Assembly: GCA_003208875.1 (NCBI GenBank)
Contig: QCUR01000011.1
Location: 1-19,231, forward strand
Origin: Prochlorococcus sp. AG-679-M23
GTDB lineage: Bacteria; Cyanobacteriota; Cyanobacteriia; PCC-6307; Cyanobiaceae
Direction of reading: 5' to 3'
DNA: 19,231 nt
Below are positions 667-18,672 of the stretch, piece after piece. The position numbers and the translations under genes were made by a program. Under the pieces are notes generated by a model. It worked only from the letters and a program-made list of their open reading frames with translations, was not told where the DNA came from and did not search any database. Positions within the stretch are counted from its first letter, which is position 1, and each line of letters starts with the position of its first letter.

Positions 667-694
667 TACGCTTGATTTTTTTATATCACCCGTA
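667..694. promoter_or_regulatory. 28-bp dyad TACG-N2-TGAT-N8-ATCA-N2-CGTA (class 2 element, putative operator)
   Basis: Symmetric palindrome 35 bp upstream of the ATG at 730. The 40 bp at 661-700 match the reverse complement of 15581-15620 at 36/40 positions. Confidence 0.65.
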
Positions 695-729
695 CTAAAT
701 CATAAGCAGATAAAAAGGAGGAAAAACAA

Positions 730-831
730 ATGACTAATTTAGGCATAGAAATTCTATTTTGGATAGTTTTAATTTCTTATCTAGGATTAAGGTTTTCTCA
801 AACTTGGTACGGCTTCAAACAACAATATTAA
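730..831 (+). CDS. 33-aa single-TM microprotein (MTNLG family)
   Basis: MTNLGIEILFWIVLISYLGLRFSQTWYGFKQQY*; strong SD AAGGAGG at 715-721; paralog at 15391-15552. Confidence 0.75.
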   Translation: MTNLGIEILFWIVLISYLGLRFSQTWYGFKQQY

Positions 832-4254: not shown

Positions 4255-5280
4255 TTAAAAATAAACTCCAGATGAGTGTAAAAACTCTTTGTAAACTTCT
4301 TGCCAGTGAATAATCCTCTGTTCAAGCCTATTAGGAGGTCCAAGTTTAAATTTTTCCATATAAGACTTTTGAACTGATTCGACAATAACTTTATCTTCAT
4401 CAAGAAAATTAAGGATATCATTTTTCCAAGCTTCTAAATCTTTTTCACACAAAGATGAAGAAGCTAATTTTATTTCTAAACTACATTGATCAATTCTTTG
4501 AGGGGGATAACTTATTAACAAAATACCTTTACCAGGCCAAACTATGATATGCGTCCATGGTAATAATCCAAAAGTATATAAATTTTCTCTACTATTTATT
4601 GGGGTAACAAGAACATTACAAAATTTACTAAATAAATACTTATAGTTCTTAATTGGACCTTGCTCTTTATGTAATGTATTCTTATGAGCGACCGCGACAT
4701 GATAGTCATCAAGTGTATTATCATGAGCTATCTTCCAATTACAATTTAATGTATTAGAAAATTCAGAAAATATACCATAATTTATATTCCATTCATTTTT
4801 ACATTTCAATTCAACTAGTTCAATTTGATCATCTATAGATATTGGTTGATCGCTAAAATTAATCCAAATTAAAGGCCCATTTACTAAAGAATTTACTTTT
4901 TCTAAAAAATAATCACTTAATACCATATTGACTTGAAAATCATCTTTTAATGGCAAATTTTTTAGTTCACCAAAACTATCAAAAGTCCAGCCATGGTAGG
5001 GACAAAAAATACTTTTAGAGGGATTACCTTTAGTTTTAGGCAAACATAATTCAGAACCACGATGCGGGCATCTATTTTTAAAAACAGTTATTGAATTATT
5101 TGCTGAACATGAAATAAATAATGATTGCTTTAAGAATTTTTTTTCTATTATTTCTCCAGCTTTAATTTCTCCAACAAAAATCAATGGATGCCAAAAATTT
5201 TTAGAATATTTATCTAATTCAAAATTAAATATTTGTTTATCGTTATAAAGCCATGTGGGCAAAAAACTCTTGTAAGACAT
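4255..5280 (-). CDS. Rieske non-heme iron oxygenase alpha subunit
   Basis: Rieske motif CPHRG...CPYHGW; mononuclear Fe motif DNTLDDYHVAVAH and a C-terminal ED; start overlaps the ATPase stop. Confidence 0.92.
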   Translation of the reverse strand: MSYKSFLPTWLYNDKQIFNFELDKYSKNFWHPLIFVGEIKAGEIIEKKFLKQSLFISCSANNSITVFKNRCPHRGSELCLPKTKGNPSKSIFCPYHGWTFDSFGELKNLPLKDDFQVNMVLSDYFLEKVNSLVNGPLIWINFSDQPISIDDQIELVELKCKNEWNINYGIFSEFSNTLNCNWKIAHDNTLDDYHVAVAHKNTLHKEQGPIKNYKYLFSKFCNVLVTPINSRENLYTFGLLPWTHIIVWPGKGILLISYPPQRIDQCSLEIKLASSSLCEKDLEAWKNDILNFLDEDKVIVESVQKSYMEKFKLGPPNRLEQRIIHWQEVYKEFLHSSGVYF

Positions 5281-6041
5281 TAATTTTTTTGGATACTTCT
5301 TAAATAATCAGATAATTCATATCTCAACTTTGAGAAATTTGGATCAAGTCTCAATTTATTTAAATCATCTTTTTGTAAATCAACTTTAACTTCTTTTATT
5401 ATTCTTCCAGGATTGGGAGCCAAAATACATATTCGCTCAGATAGCGCTAATGCTTCTTCAATATCATGCGTAATAAGAAGAACAGTCAATGAAGTTTTTT
5501 TCCATAGTTTATAAAGAAAACTCTGCATAGATTCTCTAATCTGCAAGTCCAAGGCTCCAAAAGGTTCATCCAAAAGCAAGATTTTTGGATTTGTAGCCAA
5601 AGCTCTAGCAATAGCAACCCTTTGTTGCATTCCTCCAGATAATTCTTTTGGATACTTAGAAGCTGAATCTTGAAGTCCCACTACTTCAAGTAAATAAGAT
5701 GTTCGATATTTTATTTCTTTTAATTTATAAGAATTCAAGTTCATTCCAAATGAAATATTCTCCTCTGCGGTAAGCCATGGGAAAAGACTATATTTCTGAA
5801 AAACCATCCCTCGATCTAAGCCAGGACCATGAACAACTTTTCCATCAACTTTTACGTTTCCTTTTGATGGATTTTCTAGTCCAGCAATAATCCTCAATAT
5901 AGTACTTTTACCTGATCCAGAACTCCCTACAAGAGTTTTAAACTCTCCCGAACTTATTGAAAAACTAACTTCATCAATTGCCTTTTTTTTATTAGACCCT
6001 TCTCCAAAGTATTTTGAAATATTATTTACATCCAGTTTCAT
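5280..6041 (-). CDS. ABC transporter ATP-binding protein (NitT/TauT family)
   Basis: Walker A GSSGSGKST, signature LSGGMQQR, Walker B LLLDEPFGALD, H-loop THD. Confidence 0.95.
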   Translation of the reverse strand: MKLDVNNISKYFGEGSNKKKAIDEVSFSISSGEFKTLVGSSGSGKSTILRIIAGLENPSKGNVKVDGKVVHGPGLDRGMVFQKYSLFPWLTAEENISFGMNLNSYKLKEIKYRTSYLLEVVGLQDSASKYPKELSGGMQQRVAIARALATNPKILLLDEPFGALDLQIRESMQSFLYKLWKKTSLTVLLITHDIEEALALSERICILAPNPGRIIKEVKVDLQKDDLNKLRLDPNFSKLRYELSDYLRSIQKN

Positions 6042-6863
6042 TTAAACAGCCCATTTGCATGTACGTCTTAAAAGAAATCTAAAGCTCATATCTAGAGTGA
6101 ATCCAATTAGCCCCAAAACTATTAATTCTGCAAATATTTGATCTGTACGAAAAAACCTCTGAGCTAATTGAATCCTTTTTCCTAAACCAACTTCTGCCGC
6201 AATTAATTCCGCAACAATCACTAGGTTCCATGAGGTTGCAATATTAATTCTTAAAGTATCAATAATACTTGGTAAAGAATATCTTGCTATTACTTTGATT
6301 AATAAATCTTTTGTATTACCACCTAAAGTAAGAGTCGTTTCTATAAGCTCCCTAGGAACAAATTTTACTGAATCCATAACCATCAAAACATTAAAATAAA
6401 CTGTTCCAATAAAAATTAATGCAATTTTTGGAGCTTCTTCAATTCCTAAATAAATAATCAGTAAAGGAGTAAAAGCAGCCGCAGGCATATATCTAAGCAT
6501 TGCAATCAAAGGTTCGCATAGTGCACAAAAAGAAGGGAAGGAACCCATTGCAATTCCTAAAGGAACAGACAAAATTGTCGCAATTATAAAACCTGCAAAA
6601 ACCCTACCAGTACTTGCAAATATATCTTGGAATAAGATTCCACTTTCAGCCATATCTAAAAGTGAATAAAAAACTGCTATAGGAGATGGCAAAAACAATT
6701 CACTTACCAGTTTTAGTTGACAAATTACTGACCAAAGTAAAAGAGGCAGCAAAAGTGATGCAATTTGAAGAAATTTTTTATTTAATTTATTTGGTTCAGT
6801 ACCAAATAAAAAGAGGGATAAAAAAAAAGATTTATCCCTCTTGATTAATTTTGAACTAATCAT
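6042..6863 (-). CDS. ABC transporter permease (NitT/TauT family)
   Basis: Multi-TM protein with LPSP, an EAA-like loop (ELIETTLTLGG) and IVAELIAA motif. Confidence 0.95.
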   Translation of the reverse strand: MISSKLIKRDKSFFLSLFLFGTEPNKLNKKFLQIASLLLPLLLWSVICQLKLVSELFLPSPIAVFYSLLDMAESGILFQDIFASTGRVFAGFIIATILSVPLGIAMGSFPSFCALCEPLIAMLRYMPAAAFTPLLIIYLGIEEAPKIALIFIGTVYFNVLMVMDSVKFVPRELIETTLTLGGNTKDLLIKVIARYSLPSIIDTLRINIATSWNLVIVAELIAAEVGLGKRIQLAQRFFRTDQIFAELIVLGLIGFTLDMSFRFLLRRTCKWAV

Positions 6864-6877
6864 TCTAATTCTTTTTA

Positions 6878-7876
6878 TTAACTGATATTTTTTACAAAAG
6901 AAGAATTGAACAAATTGCTCATATCGGGTTTTTCAGGGATAAATCCCACCTTAACCATAAAGTCTGCCATTTGTTTCGCAGCATAAGGCATATGTTTCAT
7001 ACCCAATCCACCACTAAAAGCTTCTAAATTTTCTTCTAATGAAAAGAACCTAGTTCCACCTTTGTATTGTTTATATTCTCTTGTTGGAATTCCAGCTCTT
7101 TTAGCCATGATTTTTTCAGACTTTCTTGGATTCTTTTCCATGAATGCTCTTACATCCCACCAAGTTTTTACTATTTTTTGAACATCATCTGGTCTTTCAG
7201 AAATCAAATCTCCACTAACAGCTAATAAATCTGGAATTGCTCCTGGATAATCTTTTGAACTTGCAATAACTCTTGCTCCGGGTCTCTTCATTGCGGTGCC
7301 CGTAAATGGAGGGAAAGCCCCAACTGCATCTACTTTCCCTGCTGCGAATGCAGTAGCAGCTTGATCAGTTGGAAGTCCCTTAATGATTACATCATCTCTT
7401 GTGAGCCCGACATCATTCAAAGCTAGGACTAAAAGAAAATCATCTACAACTCCTTCTTCAACTGCCACAGTTTTTCCTTTTAAATCGGCAACACTTTTAA
7501 TTGATTTATCTGCGATTATTTGATCATTACCTGCAGAATTATCATTTACTAGTACAACTACTTCTCCACCATTCTCTCCTGGTAGAAAAGAAATTGTGTC
7601 ATTTAGGGTTTGAGAATTTCCGTCAATTTTACCAGCAGCAAAGGTTTCCATTGATTGTACATATCCATCAAACCATTTCATCTCAACATTGACGCCATTC
7701 TTTTCAAACATTTTTTGATCAACAGCTATTGCCCATGGCCACCAACCTGCCCAGTTACTATATCCGAGAGTAATCGGATCACCTTTTGGAGCGGCTGGGC
7801 TTGAAAGTGTACTCAATGAAATTGCTAAAACTAAAGCAATAAAAGAAAAGGCAAAAGCTTTAAACTTTTTAAACAT
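6878..7876 (-). CDS. ABC substrate-binding protein, probably guanidine-binding (Sll1080-like)
   Basis: Signal peptide; GYSNWAGWWPW and NDNSAGND motifs; located in the gdmH cluster. Confidence 0.88.
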   Translation of the reverse strand: MFKKFKAFAFSFIALVLAISLSTLSSPAAPKGDPITLGYSNWAGWWPWAIAVDQKMFEKNGVNVEMKWFDGYVQSMETFAAGKIDGNSQTLNDTISFLPGENGGEVVVLVNDNSAGNDQIIADKSIKSVADLKGKTVAVEEGVVDDFLLVLALNDVGLTRDDVIIKGLPTDQAATAFAAGKVDAVGAFPPFTGTAMKRPGARVIASSKDYPGAIPDLLAVSGDLISERPDDVQKIVKTWWDVRAFMEKNPRKSEKIMAKRAGIPTREYKQYKGGTRFFSLEENLEAFSGGLGMKHMPYAAKQMADFMVKVGFIPEKPDMSNLFNSSFVKNIS

Positions 7877-7936
7877 TTTTTATTAAAAAAAAAGATTATG
7901 TAATATCAATACTTAAGAAAAAATAAATATAAAGTT

Positions 7937-7950
7937 GTAATGATGGATAC
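7937..7950. promoter_or_regulatory. NtcA-box-like site upstream of the ABC transporter
   Basis: GTAatgatggaTAC (GTA-N8-TAC) in the 107-bp hypB-SBP gap, 60 bp from the SBP start. No perfectly spaced TAN3T. Confidence 0.5.
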
Positions 7951-7983
7951 TTTTAGAAAATTCCTAAGATTTGTATTTCTCCC

Positions 7984-8664
7984 TTACTTTTTAAATTCTT
8001 GAATCTTTTTACTTATCCAATTTTTCCATAAATCAAATCCAGTCATTGATGTTGAAGAAATTTCTATCACCTCAGCGTTAGGATTCGTTAAAGAAATATT
8101 TGATTTTAATTCATCAATATCGAAATTTAGATATGGCAATAAATCAACTTTAGTAATCAAAACTAAATCTGCTTCACGAAACATAACTGGATACTTCAGA
8201 GGTTTATCTTCCCCTTCAGTAATACTCAAAAGTGCGACTTTAAAATGTTCCCCTATCTCAAATTCTGCTGGACAAACTAAATTACCCACATTTTCTACTA
8301 ATAAAATGTCTAATAAAGAGGGATTAATTTTTGTTTCTAAAATTTTAAATCCACCATTAACCATATTTGCATCTAAATGACATGCTCTTCCAGTTGTAAT
8401 TGGAACAACTGGAATATTTAATTTCTCTAACCTCGCAGCATCTAAGGTGGTCGTCATATCACCTTCCAAGACGGCAACCTTAATTTTTTTTGATAGATCT
8501 TCTAAAGTCTTTTCAAGTAATTTTGTTTTACCTGAACCTGGACTACTCATTATGTTTAAACAAATTACCTTACACTCATTAAACTTTTTTTTATTAATTT
8601 CAGCTTGGTGGCTATTTTGATGAAGAATATTTAGTTCAATTTTGTCTGAAAGTGGTAAATGCAT
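7984..8664 (-). CDS. hypB: HypB-type Ni-insertion GTPase (GhaB-like)
   Basis: SSPGSGKT P-loop, ACHLDA, ENVGNLVCPAEF, EGEDKPLKYP, TKVD motifs. Confidence 0.95.
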   Translation of the reverse strand: MHLPLSDKIELNILHQNSHQAEINKKKFNECKVICLNIMSSPGSGKTKLLEKTLEDLSKKIKVAVLEGDMTTTLDAARLEKLNIPVVPITTGRACHLDANMVNGGFKILETKINPSLLDILLVENVGNLVCPAEFEIGEHFKVALLSITEGEDKPLKYPVMFREADLVLITKVDLLPYLNFDIDELKSNISLTNPNAEVIEISSTSMTGFDLWKNWISKKIQEFKK

Positions 8665-8704
8665 TTATATATTGAAATACTTATTTATTCTAAATAGTAA
8701 ACCC

Positions 8705-9061
8705 TTACTTTTCTTTAAAATCAATAGATGAAATTTTTAACTCTCTTCCTCTTATAATCTCCTCCAAATTCAAATTACAACAAGGTGATTTATAACCATT
8801 CTCTTTTTTTGGGTAGTACGAATTTTTACATTTAGAGCATCTGCCTTCAAAAGGTATTGTCTCAATAGCAATCTCAGAAGAATCTAACCATGAGCCAAAA
8901 ACAGCGGCATTGAAAGTATTAATTAAAGATATTGGCTCTACACAAGTAAATTCTCCAATCTTAAGATTAATTTTTTCAACTACTATTTTTTCTTTATTTT
9001 TTTTCTCTGCCCATTCTTCCATAGAAAGAATCAGGCATTTTGTCATATCTACTTCATGCAC
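8705..9061 (-). CDS. hypA: HypA-type Ni metallochaperone (GhaA-like)
   Basis: N-terminal MHE Ni motif, CSKC...PCC Zn site, GREL C-terminal motif. Confidence 0.93.
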   Translation of the reverse strand: MHEVDMTKCLILSMEEWAEKKNKEKIVVEKINLKIGEFTCVEPISLINTFNAAVFGSWLDSSEIAIETIPFEGRCSKCKNSYYPKKENGYKSPCCNLNLEEIIRGRELKISSIDFKEK

Positions 9062-9067
9062 AATAAT

Positions 9068-10258
9068 TTATCTCCATTTCTTATCAACCGACATATTACA
9101 TTTATCAAAAATCCATTCTGGCTTTGATTTTCTTGGGAGCTGACCACTTACTACAAGGTGCGCGATGGAATCACAAATGACTCTGGTAGCTAGTAAAGCT
9201 GTCATATCGCTTACATCGTATGGGGGAGAAACTTCAACCAACTCAAGTCCACATACATTTACGTTTCTAATAATATATTCTAAAAGTTTTAATGCTTCTC
9301 GAGGTAACAAACCTCCGGGCTCAGGCCAACCGGTTCCTGGTACAAATCCAGCATCAATACAATCTATATCAAAAGAAATATATACACAATCAGTTCCATC
9401 GGTAGCTTTTTCAATGGCAAAATCTGCTGCTTCTTTTAAACCCATATCACAAATATCAGTAACTGTTAAAACATTCGTACTTCGTTCCCTACAAATTTTC
9501 ACTCCTTCTCTTGGGACTTGCCACCCTCCAATTCCTAGTTGTACGAGATTTTTTGCTGGTGCATTTTTCATATTAGTTGCATGAAACCATGGACAGGTAT
9601 GCATTCTTTCATCTAAATCTGTTTCTTGAGTATCCACATGTCTATCAAAGTGAATAATTCCAACTTTTTTATCCCCTAAATGGCGACAAACTCCTCTTAC
9701 TGTCGGGAAACCTATCGAATGATCCCCTCCTAATATGATTGGGAACGCACCACTTGCAAAAATATGAGCGACACCTTTTGAAATTTGATCAAAACTTTTT
9801 TCATTATTTGCTGGAATTGTAAAAATATCTCCCACGTCACATATAGAAATTTGCTCTCTAAGGTCAACTCCCATTTCGTAATTATAGGGCGTGTAAAGAG
9901 CAGAAATTTTTCTTATACCTTGAGGACCAAATCTTGTTCCTGGTCTATATGTAGTTCCTGAATCATGCGGTACTCCAACTATCGCAACATCATAATTTCC
10001 TACTTCATTTACATTTTCAACATATGGGGCTTTCATAAATGTATTTATCCCCGCAAAATGAGGTAACTCACCTCTTGAAAAAGTAGATATTTTTCTATCG
10101 ACTATACTTTTAGCAGCTTCCAAACCATATTCTTTAGCCCGAGCAACTTCATTTTCCCATCCTTTGAGAGGCAATTTTGATTCCTTATCTAAGGCATCCA
10201 TCCCCTCGCTAGGATGTTTCCTCTCAAATTCAGAATTTTGATTTGATTCAGTTGTCAC
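9068..10258 (-). CDS. gdmH: Ni-dependent guanidine hydrolase (ureohydrolase family, Sll1077-like)
   Basis: GGDHS, HFDRHVD and SFDIDCID metal motifs. RMHTCPW, TGWPEPGG and the long N-terminal extension (TFSRGELPH) match my recollection of Synechocystis Sll1077. Followed by hypA/hypB/ABC as in sll1077-1082. GTG start. Confidence 0.9.
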   Translation of the reverse strand: MTTESNQNSEFERKHPSEGMDALDKESKLPLKGWENEVARAKEYGLEAAKSIVDRKISTFSRGELPHFAGINTFMKAPYVENVNEVGNYDVAIVGVPHDSGTTYRPGTRFGPQGIRKISALYTPYNYEMGVDLREQISICDVGDIFTIPANNEKSFDQISKGVAHIFASGAFPIILGGDHSIGFPTVRGVCRHLGDKKVGIIHFDRHVDTQETDLDERMHTCPWFHATNMKNAPAKNLVQLGIGGWQVPREGVKICRERSTNVLTVTDICDMGLKEAADFAIEKATDGTDCVYISFDIDCIDAGFVPGTGWPEPGGLLPREALKLLEYIIRNVNVCGLELVEVSPPYDVSDMTALLATRVICDSIAHLVVSGQLPRKSKPEWIFDKCNMSVDKKWR

Positions 10259-14226: not shown

Positions 14227-14379
14227 GCAAATCCAGATCAAAAAACGATATTAATAGAGCAGGCTTATGAGGAAATTAAAGAAATTTGTAATAAATTCCA
14301 AGAAGACTCTGGAGCTTCAGATATGGAAGTAAAAACTTTATTAAGAGAACTTGCTAGAGTTTGGGAAAAAGAAAATTAA
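14224..14379 (+). CDS. 51-aa helical hypothetical protein
   Basis: MANPDQKTILIEQAYEEIKEICNKFQEDSGASDMEVKTLLRELARVWEKEN*. Confidence 0.7.
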   Translation: MANPDQKTILIEQAYEEIKEICNKFQEDSGASDMEVKTLLRELARVWEKEN

Positions 14380-14493
14380 ATGGAATTAGTGCATCAAATA
14401 TTTCCTCCTTGGCATATCTATATGGATGTATTTCTTCTTGGTGTTGGTTTATATGTTTATCTAAGAATTACTAAAAAAATAAATACAAAATAA
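14380..14493 (+). CDS. 37-aa single-TM microprotein, copy A
   Basis: MELVHQIFPPWHIYMDVFLLGVGLYVYLRITKKINTK*; differs from copy B by 6 synonymous and 3 conservative codon changes. Confidence 0.7.
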   Translation: MELVHQIFPPWHIYMDVFLLGVGLYVYLRITKKINTK

Positions 14494-14683
14494 ATGAAAC
14501 GCTAACTAAGCTGTTTCTATATTTTTTCTAAACTTTCTTCGACCAAATATCTTCGATAAACTAAATAAAATACTTTGGATTTAGCTGGCTTATGAAAAAG
14601 TTCACAAAATGCTATGCCAGCAACCCTATTTACCGTAAATCATAGTCTATGACTGAACCTAACTACTGGCTAATGAAAAGTGA
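14380..14683 (+). repeat. ~300-bp direct repeat, copy A
   Basis: Colinear with 16858-17171; ends inside the EVE fragment. Confidence 0.9.
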
Positions 14684-14806: not shown

Positions 14807-14974
14807 ATGCAAGATTGGATTGTGAGTAGAAAACCTGACTATCCTATTCTGGAAGAATGTATTGCTTGGGTAGAAGAAAAGTTAAAGAGAGATGGATCGG
14901 ACTATAAATTAACAAAACAAGATCTTGATGATATTGAAACTACTTATGAATTTCAAACTAGTGATTTAAATTAA
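14807..14974 (+). CDS. Hypothetical acidic small protein
   Basis: MQDWIVSRKPDYP...; ATG 14807 preferred to TTG 14774. Confidence 0.6.
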   Translation: MQDWIVSRKPDYPILEECIAWVEEKLKRDGSDYKLTKQDLDDIETTYEFQTSDLN

Positions 14975-14977
14975 ATT

Positions 14978-15154
14978 TTAAACTCTTTCTTTAAATGATT
15001 TTTTAAAAAGAGTATTTGGTTTTTCTGAAGCAGTTTTCTTAAGATATTCAGGAATATAACTATATGAAACTAATTTCTCATCAGCATTATGAAAGTAGTT
15101 TTGAAATTCATTAAAGTACTTCTGGGGTAGAGTGAGAGGTTTTTTAATCTTCAT
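14978..15154 (-). CDS. 58-aa microprotein, N-terminus similar to the C-x8-C family but lacking Cys
   Basis: Start reassigned to MKIKKPLTLPQKYFNE (SD AGGAG upstream); compare MKLQTQFTVPHKQLRD and MNKRVPYAIIPKYFRT. Confidence 0.65.
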   Translation of the reverse strand: MKIKKPLTLPQKYFNEFQNYFHNADEKLVSYSYIPEYLKKTASEKPNTLFKKSFKERV

Positions 15155-15168
15155 TTTTATTCTCCTGA

Positions 15169-15351
15169 TTAGTAATGAAAATATGGAATTTCTTCTGATG
15201 GCTTTGGAACAAAAGAACAAATTCCAAATTGCATGCATTCCATTTGGTCATCATTTAAAGCTCTCGAGTTTGAATTCCGACCTGAGAATGTATCTAGAAA
15301 AAAATGTATTGTATTTTGAATCTTATGTTTATAAGGATTTCCGTAAGACAT
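15169..15351 (-). CDS. 60-aa hypothetical protein with C-x5-C
   Basis: Strong SD AAGGAGG in the leader TCAAGGAGGTTAATCATG; ECMQFGIC motif. Confidence 0.7.
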   Translation of the reverse strand: MSYGNPYKHKIQNTIHFFLDTFSGRNSNSRALNDDQMECMQFGICSFVPKPSEEIPYFHY

Positions 15352-15390
15352 GATTAACCTCCTTGATTTTTTGAAAATTTTTAAACCCTA

Positions 15391-15552
15391 TTATTCAATA
15401 ATGCAATAGGGGTCACTTTGTGATTTGCTGCAAAAAATTGTTTTGCGTAGATAGGCTTTTTCATATTTTCTATAAATACTTTGAGTTATAAAAACTCCAA
15501 AGTAAATAAGTAAGACAGTCAATATGAGTAGCTCTAATCCTAAGTTGGTCAT
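15391..15552 (-). CDS. 53-aa fusion: MTNLG TM microprotein plus C-x8-C tail
   Basis: MTNLGLELLILTVLLIYFGVFITQSIYRKYEKAYLRKTIFCSKSQSDPYCIIE*; SD AAGGAGG; 13/27 identities to the N-terminus of 730-831. Confidence 0.78.
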   Translation of the reverse strand: MTNLGLELLILTVLLIYFGVFITQSIYRKYEKAYLRKTIFCSKSQSDPYCIIE

Positions 15553-15586
15553 TTGATTAACCTCCTTTGATTTGAGTGTTATTTAG

Positions 15587-15614
15587 TACGTTTGATATAG
15601 AAAAATCAAGCGTA
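15587..15614. promoter_or_regulatory. 28-bp dyad TACG-N2-TGAT-N8-ATCA-N2-CGTA, copy 2
   Basis: Minus strand reads TACGctTGATttttctatATCAaaCGTA, 34 bp upstream of ATG 15552. Confidence 0.65.
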
Positions 15615-15713
15615 TGAATACCTAAAAAAATATCAAGTAACAACTTTAAATAACTTCGGAACTAAAAATATGACTTTAATTCTGATACTAAATTTTAAAT
15701 AAATCAGCATAAT

Positions 15714-15741
15714 TACGGATATACAAAAAAAATTATTCGTA
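15714..15741 (+). promoter_or_regulatory. TACG-N20-CGTA element, copy 3 (outer half-sites only)
   Basis: TACG 15714-15717 and CGTA(CTAA) 15738-15745, with the same 20-nt spacing as copies 1 and 2. Confidence 0.45.
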
Positions 15742-15749
15742 CTAATTTC

Positions 15750-15941
15750 CAATTAATCAAATGGAGGGATTAGAAATGATCGATAGTCCACCAGAGAAGT
15801 TTATTAGATTGGTTTAAACAGCCAACTAAATTAGCAGCAAGGATCAAAGATTTAGGTGCGTTGTTAATTTATTCCCAGACATAACTAAGTACTAAGTGAA
15901 GAGATTGTTTCCTAAAGGCGGGAGTACAATCTCTTTTTTTT
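15750..15941 (+). ncRNA. Candidate island sRNA or dual-function RNA (possibly Yfr8/Yfr9-like)
   Basis: GC-richer noncoding block ending in the hairpin AAGAGATTG...CAATCTCTT plus a long T run. Family assignment is from memory only; the 5' end is approximate. Confidence 0.4.
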
Positions 15942-16590: not shown

Positions 16591-16857
16591 TTTAGTTAAA
16601 AAGATAGATCATAAATACTAAATCACATAAATAAACATAATAACTTTGTATCAATATGAACGTAATGAATAAAATTTAACATTGCTACAGTTGAGGTGCG
16701 TTGTTAATATTGGCATCTTTCCGCTGATATTCCCGCCCGGATTTAAACCAATTAAATGTTGATCTAAATTAGAGAATATTGAAGACCTCTTTTTTAATGG
16801 ATAAAAGATTTATAGCGGAAAAGATAATGATTCTTGATTTCTTTAATTGCTTAAAGA

Positions 16858-16971
16858 ATGGAATTACTTCATCAAATATTTCCTCCGTGGCATATATACT
16901 TAGACGTTTTTCTGCTTGGTATTGGTTTATATGTTTATCTAAGAATTACTAAAAAAATAAATACAAAATAA
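16858..16971 (+). CDS. 37-aa single-TM microprotein, copy B
   Basis: MELLHQIFPPWHIYLDVFLLGIGLYVYLRITKKINTK*. Confidence 0.7.
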   Translation: MELLHQIFPPWHIYLDVFLLGIGLYVYLRITKKINTK

Positions 16972-17171
16972 AAGAAACGCTAACTAAGCTATTTCTATAT
17001 TTTTCTAAACTTTCTTCGACAAACTATCTTCGATAAACTAGATAAAATGCCTTGGATTTAGCTGGCTTATGAAAAAGTTAACAAAATTCCATACCAGCAC
17101 CATACCAGCAGCCCTATTTTTCCCAAAATATAGACTATGACTAAACCTAACTATTGGCTAATGAAAAGTGA
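16858..17171 (+). repeat. ~300-bp direct repeat, copy B
   Basis: Colinear with 14380-14683; carries an extra tandem CCATACCAGCA (17089-17110). Confidence 0.9.
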
Positions 17172-18179: not shown

Positions 18180-18473
18180 ATGGACTTTAGAATTTTATTA
18201 GTTATTACTCCAATTATTTTTGCCTGGATCTTTACAGTATTTTGGTTAGGAAAATGGGATGTATTTAGATTGACACCTTTCGGATTACCTAAACAAGGTA
18301 TAGCTCCTTTTAAAAACTACCAAGTATGGGAAGATTCATCGATTATCAATACAAACAGACCTGAGGAGGGTTATCCTGTTTTTACTATAAGAACTGCAGC
18401 TGTAAATGCCTTAGGAATTCCAACCATTTTCTTCCTTGGCGCAATTTTAGCAATGCAGTTTAAATCTTATTAA
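18180..18473 (+). CDS. PsbY-like / cytochrome b559 beta (PsbF)-like fusion protein
   Basis: N-terminus [13 protein letters not shown] is PsbY-like. C-terminus [30 protein letters not shown] aligns to PsbF YPIFTVRWLAVH..., with the heme-ligand His replaced by Asn. Confidence 0.85.
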
Positions 18474-18486
18474 TTAAGGTAATTTG

Positions 18487-18672
18487 ATGGATATCAGATT
18501 CTTAATTGTAGGAGCTCCTTTTATAGTTGCATTTTTCTATACTTTGTTTTGGCTCAAAAGATGGGGAGCTTTTAATTCATCCTCTAATAATAATCCAAAA
18601 AAAATGACTAAAAAAGATGAACGGTCAAGTAGAGATTTGATATTAGAAAACATCTTCCAAACAAAAAATTAA
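18487..18672 (+). CDS. PsbY-like small membrane protein, paralog of the upstream N-terminus
   Basis: MDIRFLIVGAPFIVAFFYTLFWLKRW versus [26 protein letters not shown]. Confidence 0.7.
   Translation: MDIRFLIVGAPFIVAFFYTLFWLKRWGAFNSSSNNNPKKMTKKDERSSRDLILENIFQTKN

Follow-up and report, generated by a model that had tools for sequence, protein, structure and literature searches.

Contig QCUR01000011.1 of Prochlorococcus sp. AG-679-M23 (here the window, that is, the whole stretch analyzed, 19,231 nucleotides (nt) long) is contig C11 of a 1.65-Mb genome that has 30% G+C and is held in 16 contigs. Its reverse strand carries a three-gene operon for microproteins, headed by a gene for a 53-residue membrane protein with two cysteines near its C-terminus (gene 1). 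The second gene (g2) encodes a soluble protein that also has two cysteines, and the third (gene 3) encodes a truncated member of a family that we call CP12-tail-like. We refer to the family of gene 1 as the MTNLG family. A shorter, 33-residue MTNLG gene stands on the forward strand between two CP12-tail-like genes, each with a C-x8-C motif, an arrangement that an initial annotation of the window had described correctly. A high-light-inducible-type gene and the small RNA Yfr11 are both carried in the window as well. The source records label the homologs of the window's small proteins 'hypothetical protein [Prochlorococcus marinus]', and a search of the full-text literature, which did not cover the main CP12 survey (Stanley et al. 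2013), found no description of the membrane family, of g2 or of the CP12-tail-like family. Within that scope, the locus is a microprotein operon without an earlier description. Coordinates are collected in Table 1.

Table 1. Coordinates of the operon, its relatives and the neighboring RNA elements (ORF, open reading frame; TM, transmembrane; all positions are in the window except the last row)
Feature	Position	Strand	Basis
CP12-tail-like microprotein, 50 aa	492..644	+	ORF, upstream of the short form
Second copy of the 33-nt upstream block	668..700	+	ahead of the short form
Tail-less 33-aa paralog, short MTNLG form	730..831	+	ORF; BLASTP against the 53-aa protein
CP12-tail-like microprotein, 48 aa	845..991	+	ORF, 14 nt downstream of the short form
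CP12-tail-like family member, 46 aa	11764..11904	-	family search in the window
Gene 3, truncated CP12-tail-like member, 58 aa, no Cys	14978..15154	-	homology to 72-aa orthologs
g2, 60-aa soluble two-Cys microprotein	15169..15351	-	ORF with its own GGAGG, between gene 1 and gene 3
Gene 1, long MTNLG-type microprotein, 53 aa	15391..15552	-	ORF; predicted TM helix at about residues 5-24, Cys41-x8-Cys50 loop
Leader or promoter region of gene 1	15553..15629	-	GGAGG at 15565-15561; 33-nt block at 15613-15581
Small RNA Yfr11	15755..15940	+	Rfam, 89.3 bits, E 8e-14; divergent, about 200 nt upstream of gene 1
CP12-tail-like member, 51 aa	L104 2501-2656		cyanophage (myovirus) P-TIM68

The gene 1 product has one hydrophobic stretch, in its N-terminal half, and ends in a C-x8-C of its own (Cys41 and Cys50), which the initial annotation had noticed and which the translation of the reading frame bears out. 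The predicted TM helix continues as a basic amphipathic helix (Arg28, Lys29, Lys32, Arg36, Lys37). An AlphaFold2 model based on an alignment of 34 distinct long forms (predicted local distance difference test score, pLDDT, 83.8) shows a single helix over residues 4-43, followed by a loop over residues 44-53. Within this alignment F40, C41 and Y49 never vary, P48 and C50 reach at least 90% conservation, and the tail follows the motif F-C-x-[KE]-S-x-S-[ND]-P-Y-C, with the proline at loop position 7. The flank N-terminal to the hydrophobic stretch has no positive charge, and the stretch after it has five Arg/Lys residues and one Glu. Because the positive charges follow the TM helix, the positive-inside rule would let the short N-terminus face out and the basic helix and the Cys loop face the cytoplasm. 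All copies of the gene have a GGAGG site 8-9 nt ahead of the ATG.

Conservation was followed at 72 loci (L001-L072), namely the genome's own three, the 29 best matches, 20 diverged full-length copies and 20 short copies; the diverged and short sets were drawn down the hit list regardless of their neighbors. A start-motif filter placed six MTNLG-like reading frames (L028, L056, L033, L032, L010, L015) outside the neighbor counts; by eye they show the same neighbor patterns, and they remain uncounted. The family falls into three subfamilies: LT1 (53 residues, the window type), LT2 (52 residues, with another TM segment and linker and the same tail) and the 33-residue short form. The orthologs keep the Cys pair on which the initial annotation had built its proposal. 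It is present at 29/29 LT1 loci and 17/18 LT2 loci, where L034 has it farther from its longer end and L051 has lost it. A word-indexed database search returned 84 clusters at 90% identity, nearly all 53-54 residues long, and 68 of these keep the pair; among the 16 that do not, 10 have truncated, frameshifted or chimeric tails and 6 carry single substitutions. The pairwise ratio of nonsynonymous to synonymous changes (pN/pS) is 0.33 for LT1, 0.25 for LT2 and 0.31 for the short form (31 distinct copies). By their sequences, the MTNLG proteins are single-pass membrane microproteins under purifying selection.

The family was found almost only in one genus, in Prochlorococcus of the high-light type. 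A six-frame search gave matches in 118 of 151 congeneric genomes and in 41 of the 50 that are near-complete, with multiple MTNLG genes whose number varies between genomes. In a family-wide survey (121 genomes, 64 genera), the 117 genomes from the 63 other genera yielded a single weak match, with an in-frame stop. Searches of phage records (tblastn, E up to 1) and of IMG/VR contigs found no relative of the 53-residue protein. The window's microproteins matched no family of known function in Pfam, NCBIfam or PHROG, and PADLOC gave no match. DUF3185 (PF11381) reached 14.5 bits on the 53-residue protein, under its cut-off of 25.3 (E 0.034), and touched the TM stretch only. The PHROG matches to the 33-residue peptide were two and weak (E 0.005, function unknown), the other microproteins having none, and the best feature score in an ESM Atlas scan, 0.85, lies below the 0.9 level taken as a lead. 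In one database cluster (P0078) the first 33 residues of the 53-residue protein are followed by the C-terminal half of a high-light-inducible-type protein, the product either of genuine recombination or of chimeric assembly.

The initial annotation had also claimed that the 53- and 33-residue proteins are paralogs, with 13/27 identical residues over their first 27. The claim stands up in a single BLASTP comparison (E 7e-8), although the match is weaker in a whole-genome search (E 0.02). The likeness of the two window copies exceeds chance: both also have the 33-nt upstream block and the GGAGG site in common. This block occurs exactly twice in the 1.65-Mb genome, each time upstream of a window MTNLG gene. 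A third, tail-less copy lies on contig C6, with a 49-residue C-x8-C gene directly downstream. Such pairing recurs elsewhere, as had been anticipated: at 19/24 short-form loci, which are of two types, a CP12-tail-like gene follows 13-215 nt downstream on the same strand, and remnants of one are detectable at three of the five exceptions (L061, E 9.6e-12; L062, E 0.027; L060, E 0.12). The decay modes seen in L060, L061, L062 and at 14950-14985 of the window are internal loop deletion, early stop and lost start. In several genomes a cluster of the type found at the window's short-form locus (locus-1 type) stands back to back with the LT1 operon; in the window the two are 14 kb apart. The association of short forms with CP12-tail-like genes is real but not obligate, because the CP12-tail-like family occurs in 32 of the 64 genera surveyed and the MTNLG family was not found there.

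The initial annotation had missed g2, the gene directly downstream of gene 1. Its family comprises proteins of 56-61 residues with an invariant E-C-M-Q-F-G-I-C segment and a conserved E-E-[IV]-P-[YF]-F-H-Y end (alignment of 28 sequences). It lies 33-40 nt downstream of LT1 at 27/29 loci and is truncated at the other two, and at 11/18 LT2 loci a g2-like gene stands divergently, about 540 nt upstream. The Cys-loop forms are thus accompanied most constantly by g2, and less so by the CP12-tail-like gene. Co-folding of the gene 1 and g2 products gave a score of 0.00 in a run without controls, which counts neither for nor against binding. At L035, L039-L041, L044, L045, L047-L049, L051 and L052, LT2 also has, about 70-350 nt upstream on the same strand, a 35-residue basic reading frame and one of 54-56 residues with two C-x3-C motifs. 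The latter is a further Cys microprotein that travels with the MTNLG family.

Gene 3 has no cysteine, in agreement with the earlier reading. Over a length of 58 residues its product shares 48% identity with tail-bearing 72-residue orthologs (E 1e-19), and homology at the DNA level extends about 25 nt past its stop into decayed tail-coding sequence. Its tail was lost by decay, not by transfer. Contigs from four metatranscriptome runs (four studies, marine libraries; unstranded and without a transcript start) cover 14950-15560 in 4/4 runs and bridge both the gene 1/g2 and the g2/gene 3 junctions, which fits co-transcription of the operon.

The RNA contigs also reach into the 33-nt upstream block, to 15622 in run X1 and to 15711 in run X3; part of the depth there comes from paralogous short-form loci, as loose contig ends at 15582 indicate, and depth is zero at 15630-15663 in 3/4 runs. 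A sigma-70 consensus scan did not flag the block. Within the 85 nt upstream at L001-L072, LT1 and the short forms of locus-1 type have the leader or promoter block in conserved form. Different inverted repeats occupy that place in LT2 and in a second LT1 group, with possible covariation. Folding of single sequences around the block gives weak structures (-2 to -11 kcal/mol), and several copies lack the stem, so we claim no hairpin there.

Yfr11 is divergent from gene 1 at 9/9 close LT1 loci scanned, and its RNA word depth exceeds that of the operon by orders of magnitude in 4/4 marine runs. Steglich et al. 2008 (PMC2518516) report a decrease of Yfr11 in light and an increase with 3-(3,4-dichlorophenyl)-1,1-dimethylurea (DCMU). 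Its 5' end mirrors the gene 1 leader in a 30-nt inverted repeat (15561-15590 / 15738-15767, 70%), and this mirrored end holds a GGAGG-like site and then a 13-codon reading frame. By this repeat the two 5' ends resemble each other instead of being able to pair. No convincing complementarity was found between Yfr11 and either the leader or the coding region of gene 1, and the direct repeats between them are 27 nt at 70% or weaker.

The genome carries seven small reading frames of the CP12-tail-like type, four of them on other contigs, besides a canonical CP12 gene on contig C1 that has the same kind of ending. The seven end in C-x3-P-x4-C-x-[VI]-Y-[CD]-[DGN] or close variants, at the extreme C-terminus, and the C, P and C are invariant in sets of 34 and of 24 sequences. 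The family comprises 1791 clusters at 90% identity (E up to 0.001) and occurs in 47/121 genomes of the survey, and none of the 120 clusters among those listed has a Pfam domain. In other genera the family includes 70-residue forms that have a further Cys pair and end in K-V-Y-D-D. When a profile of 34 members was compared with the PDB, three of the four hits were CP12 peptides (E 0.11-0.99), and a broader profile that included other genera hit only CP12 chains (3b1j_C, E 0.028; 3zdf_C, 0.21; 6gfo_E, 0.35). Alignment by hhalign with 25 true CP12 sequences spanned 22 columns and brought both exact C-termini together (P 8.4e-4 and 1.4e-4, probabilities 24% and 52%). A column-permutation test, in which tails were anchored on the Cys pair, the cysteines fixed and the remaining columns permuted, gave P 0.0014 for these proteins against true CP12. 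The Pfam CP12 model matched one of the 34 members, under its cut-off (E 0.051), and in the genome it found canonical CP12 and none of the seven small reading frames. Since the profile likeness is present but the Pfam model fails, we call the family CP12-tail-like and not CP12. In sequence, it resembles the GAPDH-binding C-terminus of CP12.

The 53-residue protein has its own points of likeness to CP12 (PF02672). Both are very small cyanobacterial proteins with a Cys pair eight residues apart near the C-terminus, plausibly a thiol/disulfide switch. However, the 53-residue protein has a TM anchor, lacks the AWD_VEE core, carries the proline at loop position 7 instead of 4 and has no Y-D-D end. 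The CP12 loop and end motif (C-x3-P-x4-C-x-[VI]-Y-D-D) is not found in it, and the Pfam CP12 model does not match it at E up to 1. In an hhalign comparison of the long forms with CP12, the Cys loop alone aligned (14 columns, P 0.034, probability <2%). By these comparisons it is not a member of the CP12 family.

The initial annotation had gone further and read gene 1 as a Rosetta-stone fusion, in which the C-x8-C passed to the TM peptide from its neighbor, leaving the neighbor without it, and both work jointly as a membrane-tethered switch. Several observations make this attractive. The spacing and the C-terminal position are the same and are rare in the genome: none of 1131 reading frames of at least 150 residues has a C-x8-C in its last 20 residues, and of the 1149 adjacent Cys pairs no more than 20 apart, 40 (3.5%) have a spacing of eight. 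In this strain the downstream member of the family is without its tail, short forms lie directly upstream of C-x8-C genes at most of their loci, and the best hhalign alignment, weak as it is, falls on the two Cys loops. The N-terminal part of gene 1 is indeed homologous to a stand-alone TM peptide, as the 13/27 identity and the shared block indicate. A corresponding homology of the C-terminal part to a stand-alone C-x8-C protein was not detected. The alignment of long forms with the CP12-tail-like family covers 11 columns (P 0.087, probability 0.7%), and beyond the cysteines the permutation test gave P 0.38 (neighbors) and 0.46, with a positive control at 0.0014. The two tails differ in motif. 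The proline is at position 7 in 66/68 gene-1-type tails and invariantly at position 4 in the neighbors, and the 53-residue tail has neither the aromatic-Trp (Y-W) lead-in nor the Y-C-D end. Nor does a composite replace its separate components. In three related genomes (L017, L018, L019) LT1, g2 and a 72-residue gene with an intact CP12-like tail stand side by side in one operon; therefore, the Cys pair is not shuffled between subunits. LT2 has the same tail with a C-x8-C gene downstream in 0/18 loci. A profile search over 1.84 billion representatives of any length found the C-x3-P-x4-C tail in 0/43 MTNLG representatives, the longest of 100 residues. The tail appears to be an ancestral feature of the long forms and not something copied from the CP12-like module. 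As far as these comparisons reach, gene 1 is therefore no Rosetta-stone fusion, a reading that we consider very unlikely.

The remaining alternatives concern what the peptides do. They could serve a membrane complex (a photosystem, cytochrome b6f, NDH-1 or a transporter) as accessory small subunits or as assembly factors, with the Cys loop as a contact or cofactor site that is independent of the neighboring genes. Small photosynthetic subunits are typically of this size and have a single TM helix, the loci lie among high-light-inducible protein genes, and the MTNLG gene stays while its neighbors decay. However, a near single-genus range and a multi-copy, variable number are unlike core subunits, and no Pfam, NCBIfam or PHROG family of known function was matched. 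We find this reading unlikely. The peptides could also be membrane-active toxins of a type I toxin-antitoxin system, or of an island-borne addiction or defense module, restrained by an RNA such as Yfr11. Type I toxins such as TisB, ShoB and ZorO are small hydrophobic single-helix peptides with a strong ribosome site, as the MTNLG peptides are. The MTNLG genes are, in addition, multi-copy, located in variable island DNA, equipped with unusually strong ribosome sites and accompanied by a nearby divergent small RNA gene. The peptide-bearing Yfr6 and Yfr9 RNAs of Prochlorococcus offer a further comparison, and Steglich et al. (PMC2518516) weigh toxin-antitoxin explanations for peptide-bearing Yfr RNAs other than Yfr11. 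Against this, no convincing complementarity of Yfr11 to the gene 1 leader or coding region was found, purifying selection reaches the conserved, putatively cytoplasmic and soluble Cys-loop tail of the long forms, soluble partners share the putative transcript, and PADLOC gave no match. We regard a toxin as quite unlikely. Finally, the short reading frames might be leader peptides or upstream reading frames that regulate the next genes through translation, the peptide itself being functionless. The next gene is 13-40 nt away and the leaders are conserved in common, but a pN/pS of 0.25-0.33, a TM character and an invariant Cys-loop motif kept over 40-100% identity, and the lack of a gene directly downstream of LT2 make this hardly credible.

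We propose, with about even confidence, that gene 1 encodes a real membrane microprotein that heads an operon and carries a cytoplasmic Cys-loop switch, is not a fusion, and works in a light or redox context. The analysis establishes that the gene is real and conserved, that it heads an operon and that its tail is distinct from the neighbors' module; the topology, the thiol switch and the partners are inferred. The Cys pair, if cytoplasmic, would alternate between the dithiol and disulfide states or bind a metal, either of which seems likelier than a structural bridge. The initial annotation's idea of a membrane-tethered redox or metal switch is a reasonable hypothesis where the tail alone is concerned. 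The protein may work at the membrane surface alongside g2, with which it is presumably co-transcribed, and the context may be light or redox control of carbon metabolism, which seems likely because of the repeated pairing with CP12-tail-like proteins and the adjacent redox-responsive Yfr11. A more far-reaching scheme would have MTNLG, g2 and CP12-tail-like proteins form a thiol-switch network that is specific to Prochlorococcus and encoded beside Yfr11. Depending on the photosynthetic redox state, it would bind GAPDH (or a different CP12 target) at the membrane or let it go, and phage P-TIM68 would tap into it through its 51-residue CP12-tail-like gene. This scheme strikes us as very doubtful.

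A number of observations weigh against the proposed Cys-loop switch and its context. The structural model of g2 is of low confidence (pLDDT 56.4), too poor for a fold search. The RNA contigs cannot prove one transcript, give the strand or rule out DNA carry-over, and, being unstranded, they would not reveal an antisense RNA. The presence of CP12-tail-like proteins in the 32 genera mentioned above means that the partnership is not obligate, and decay of these partners next to an intact MTNLG gene is frequent, as at gene 3 of the window and at L060-L062. Yfr11 adjacency drops to 0/6 in the second LT1 group. Equal C-x8-C spacing at a C-terminus is uncommon in the genome, and a very old, distant relation of the two Cys loops may exist.

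We know of no cyanobacterial regulatory microprotein that combines a TM helix with a C-terminal Cys loop, and of none encoded in a three-microprotein operon. Such microproteins are the subject of two reviews (PMC7760959, PMC11848123). Like the MTNLG proteins, the known ones are shorter than 100 residues, too small for catalysis and likely to bind larger partners under stress or light shifts. The locus exposes three unannotated microprotein families that travel together: the TM peptide with or without the Cys loop, g2 and the CP12-tail-like proteins. Prochlorococcus is the most abundant ocean phototroph and has few classical regulators, so small proteins and small RNAs likely carry much of its regulation. 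If CP12-tail-like proteins bind GAPDH, they would add a multi-copy, island-borne layer of Calvin-cycle control, in cells and phages, beside canonical CP12, and the membrane peptides could give such a layer a location. The case also has corrective value: matching Cys spacing in adjacent genes suggested a fusion that the comparisons do not bear out.

Two direct repeats of about 300 nt (14379-14683 and 16857-17171), which are 84-91% identical and lie 2478 nt apart, flank the operon together with Yfr11 and a 123-residue Lys/Glu-rich reading frame, so that this block has a cassette-like structure. Each repeat holds a reading frame for a 37-residue TM microprotein (14380-14493 and 16858-16971). Elsewhere in the window, the reverse strand at 4255-10258 carries a cluster with a Rieske oxygenase, an NMT1-type ATP-binding cassette transporter (binding protein, permease and ATPase), HypB-like and HypA-like nickel chaperones and an arginase-family enzyme. 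In gene content the cluster may be akin to the Ni-dependent guanidine hydrolase systems known from cyanobacteria. On the forward strand, neighboring genes at 18180-18473 and 18484-18672 encode small TM proteins that are alike at their N-termini, and the product of the former matches the cytochrome b559 (PsbE/F) TM profile just over the cut-off (31.4 bits, E 1.3e-7).

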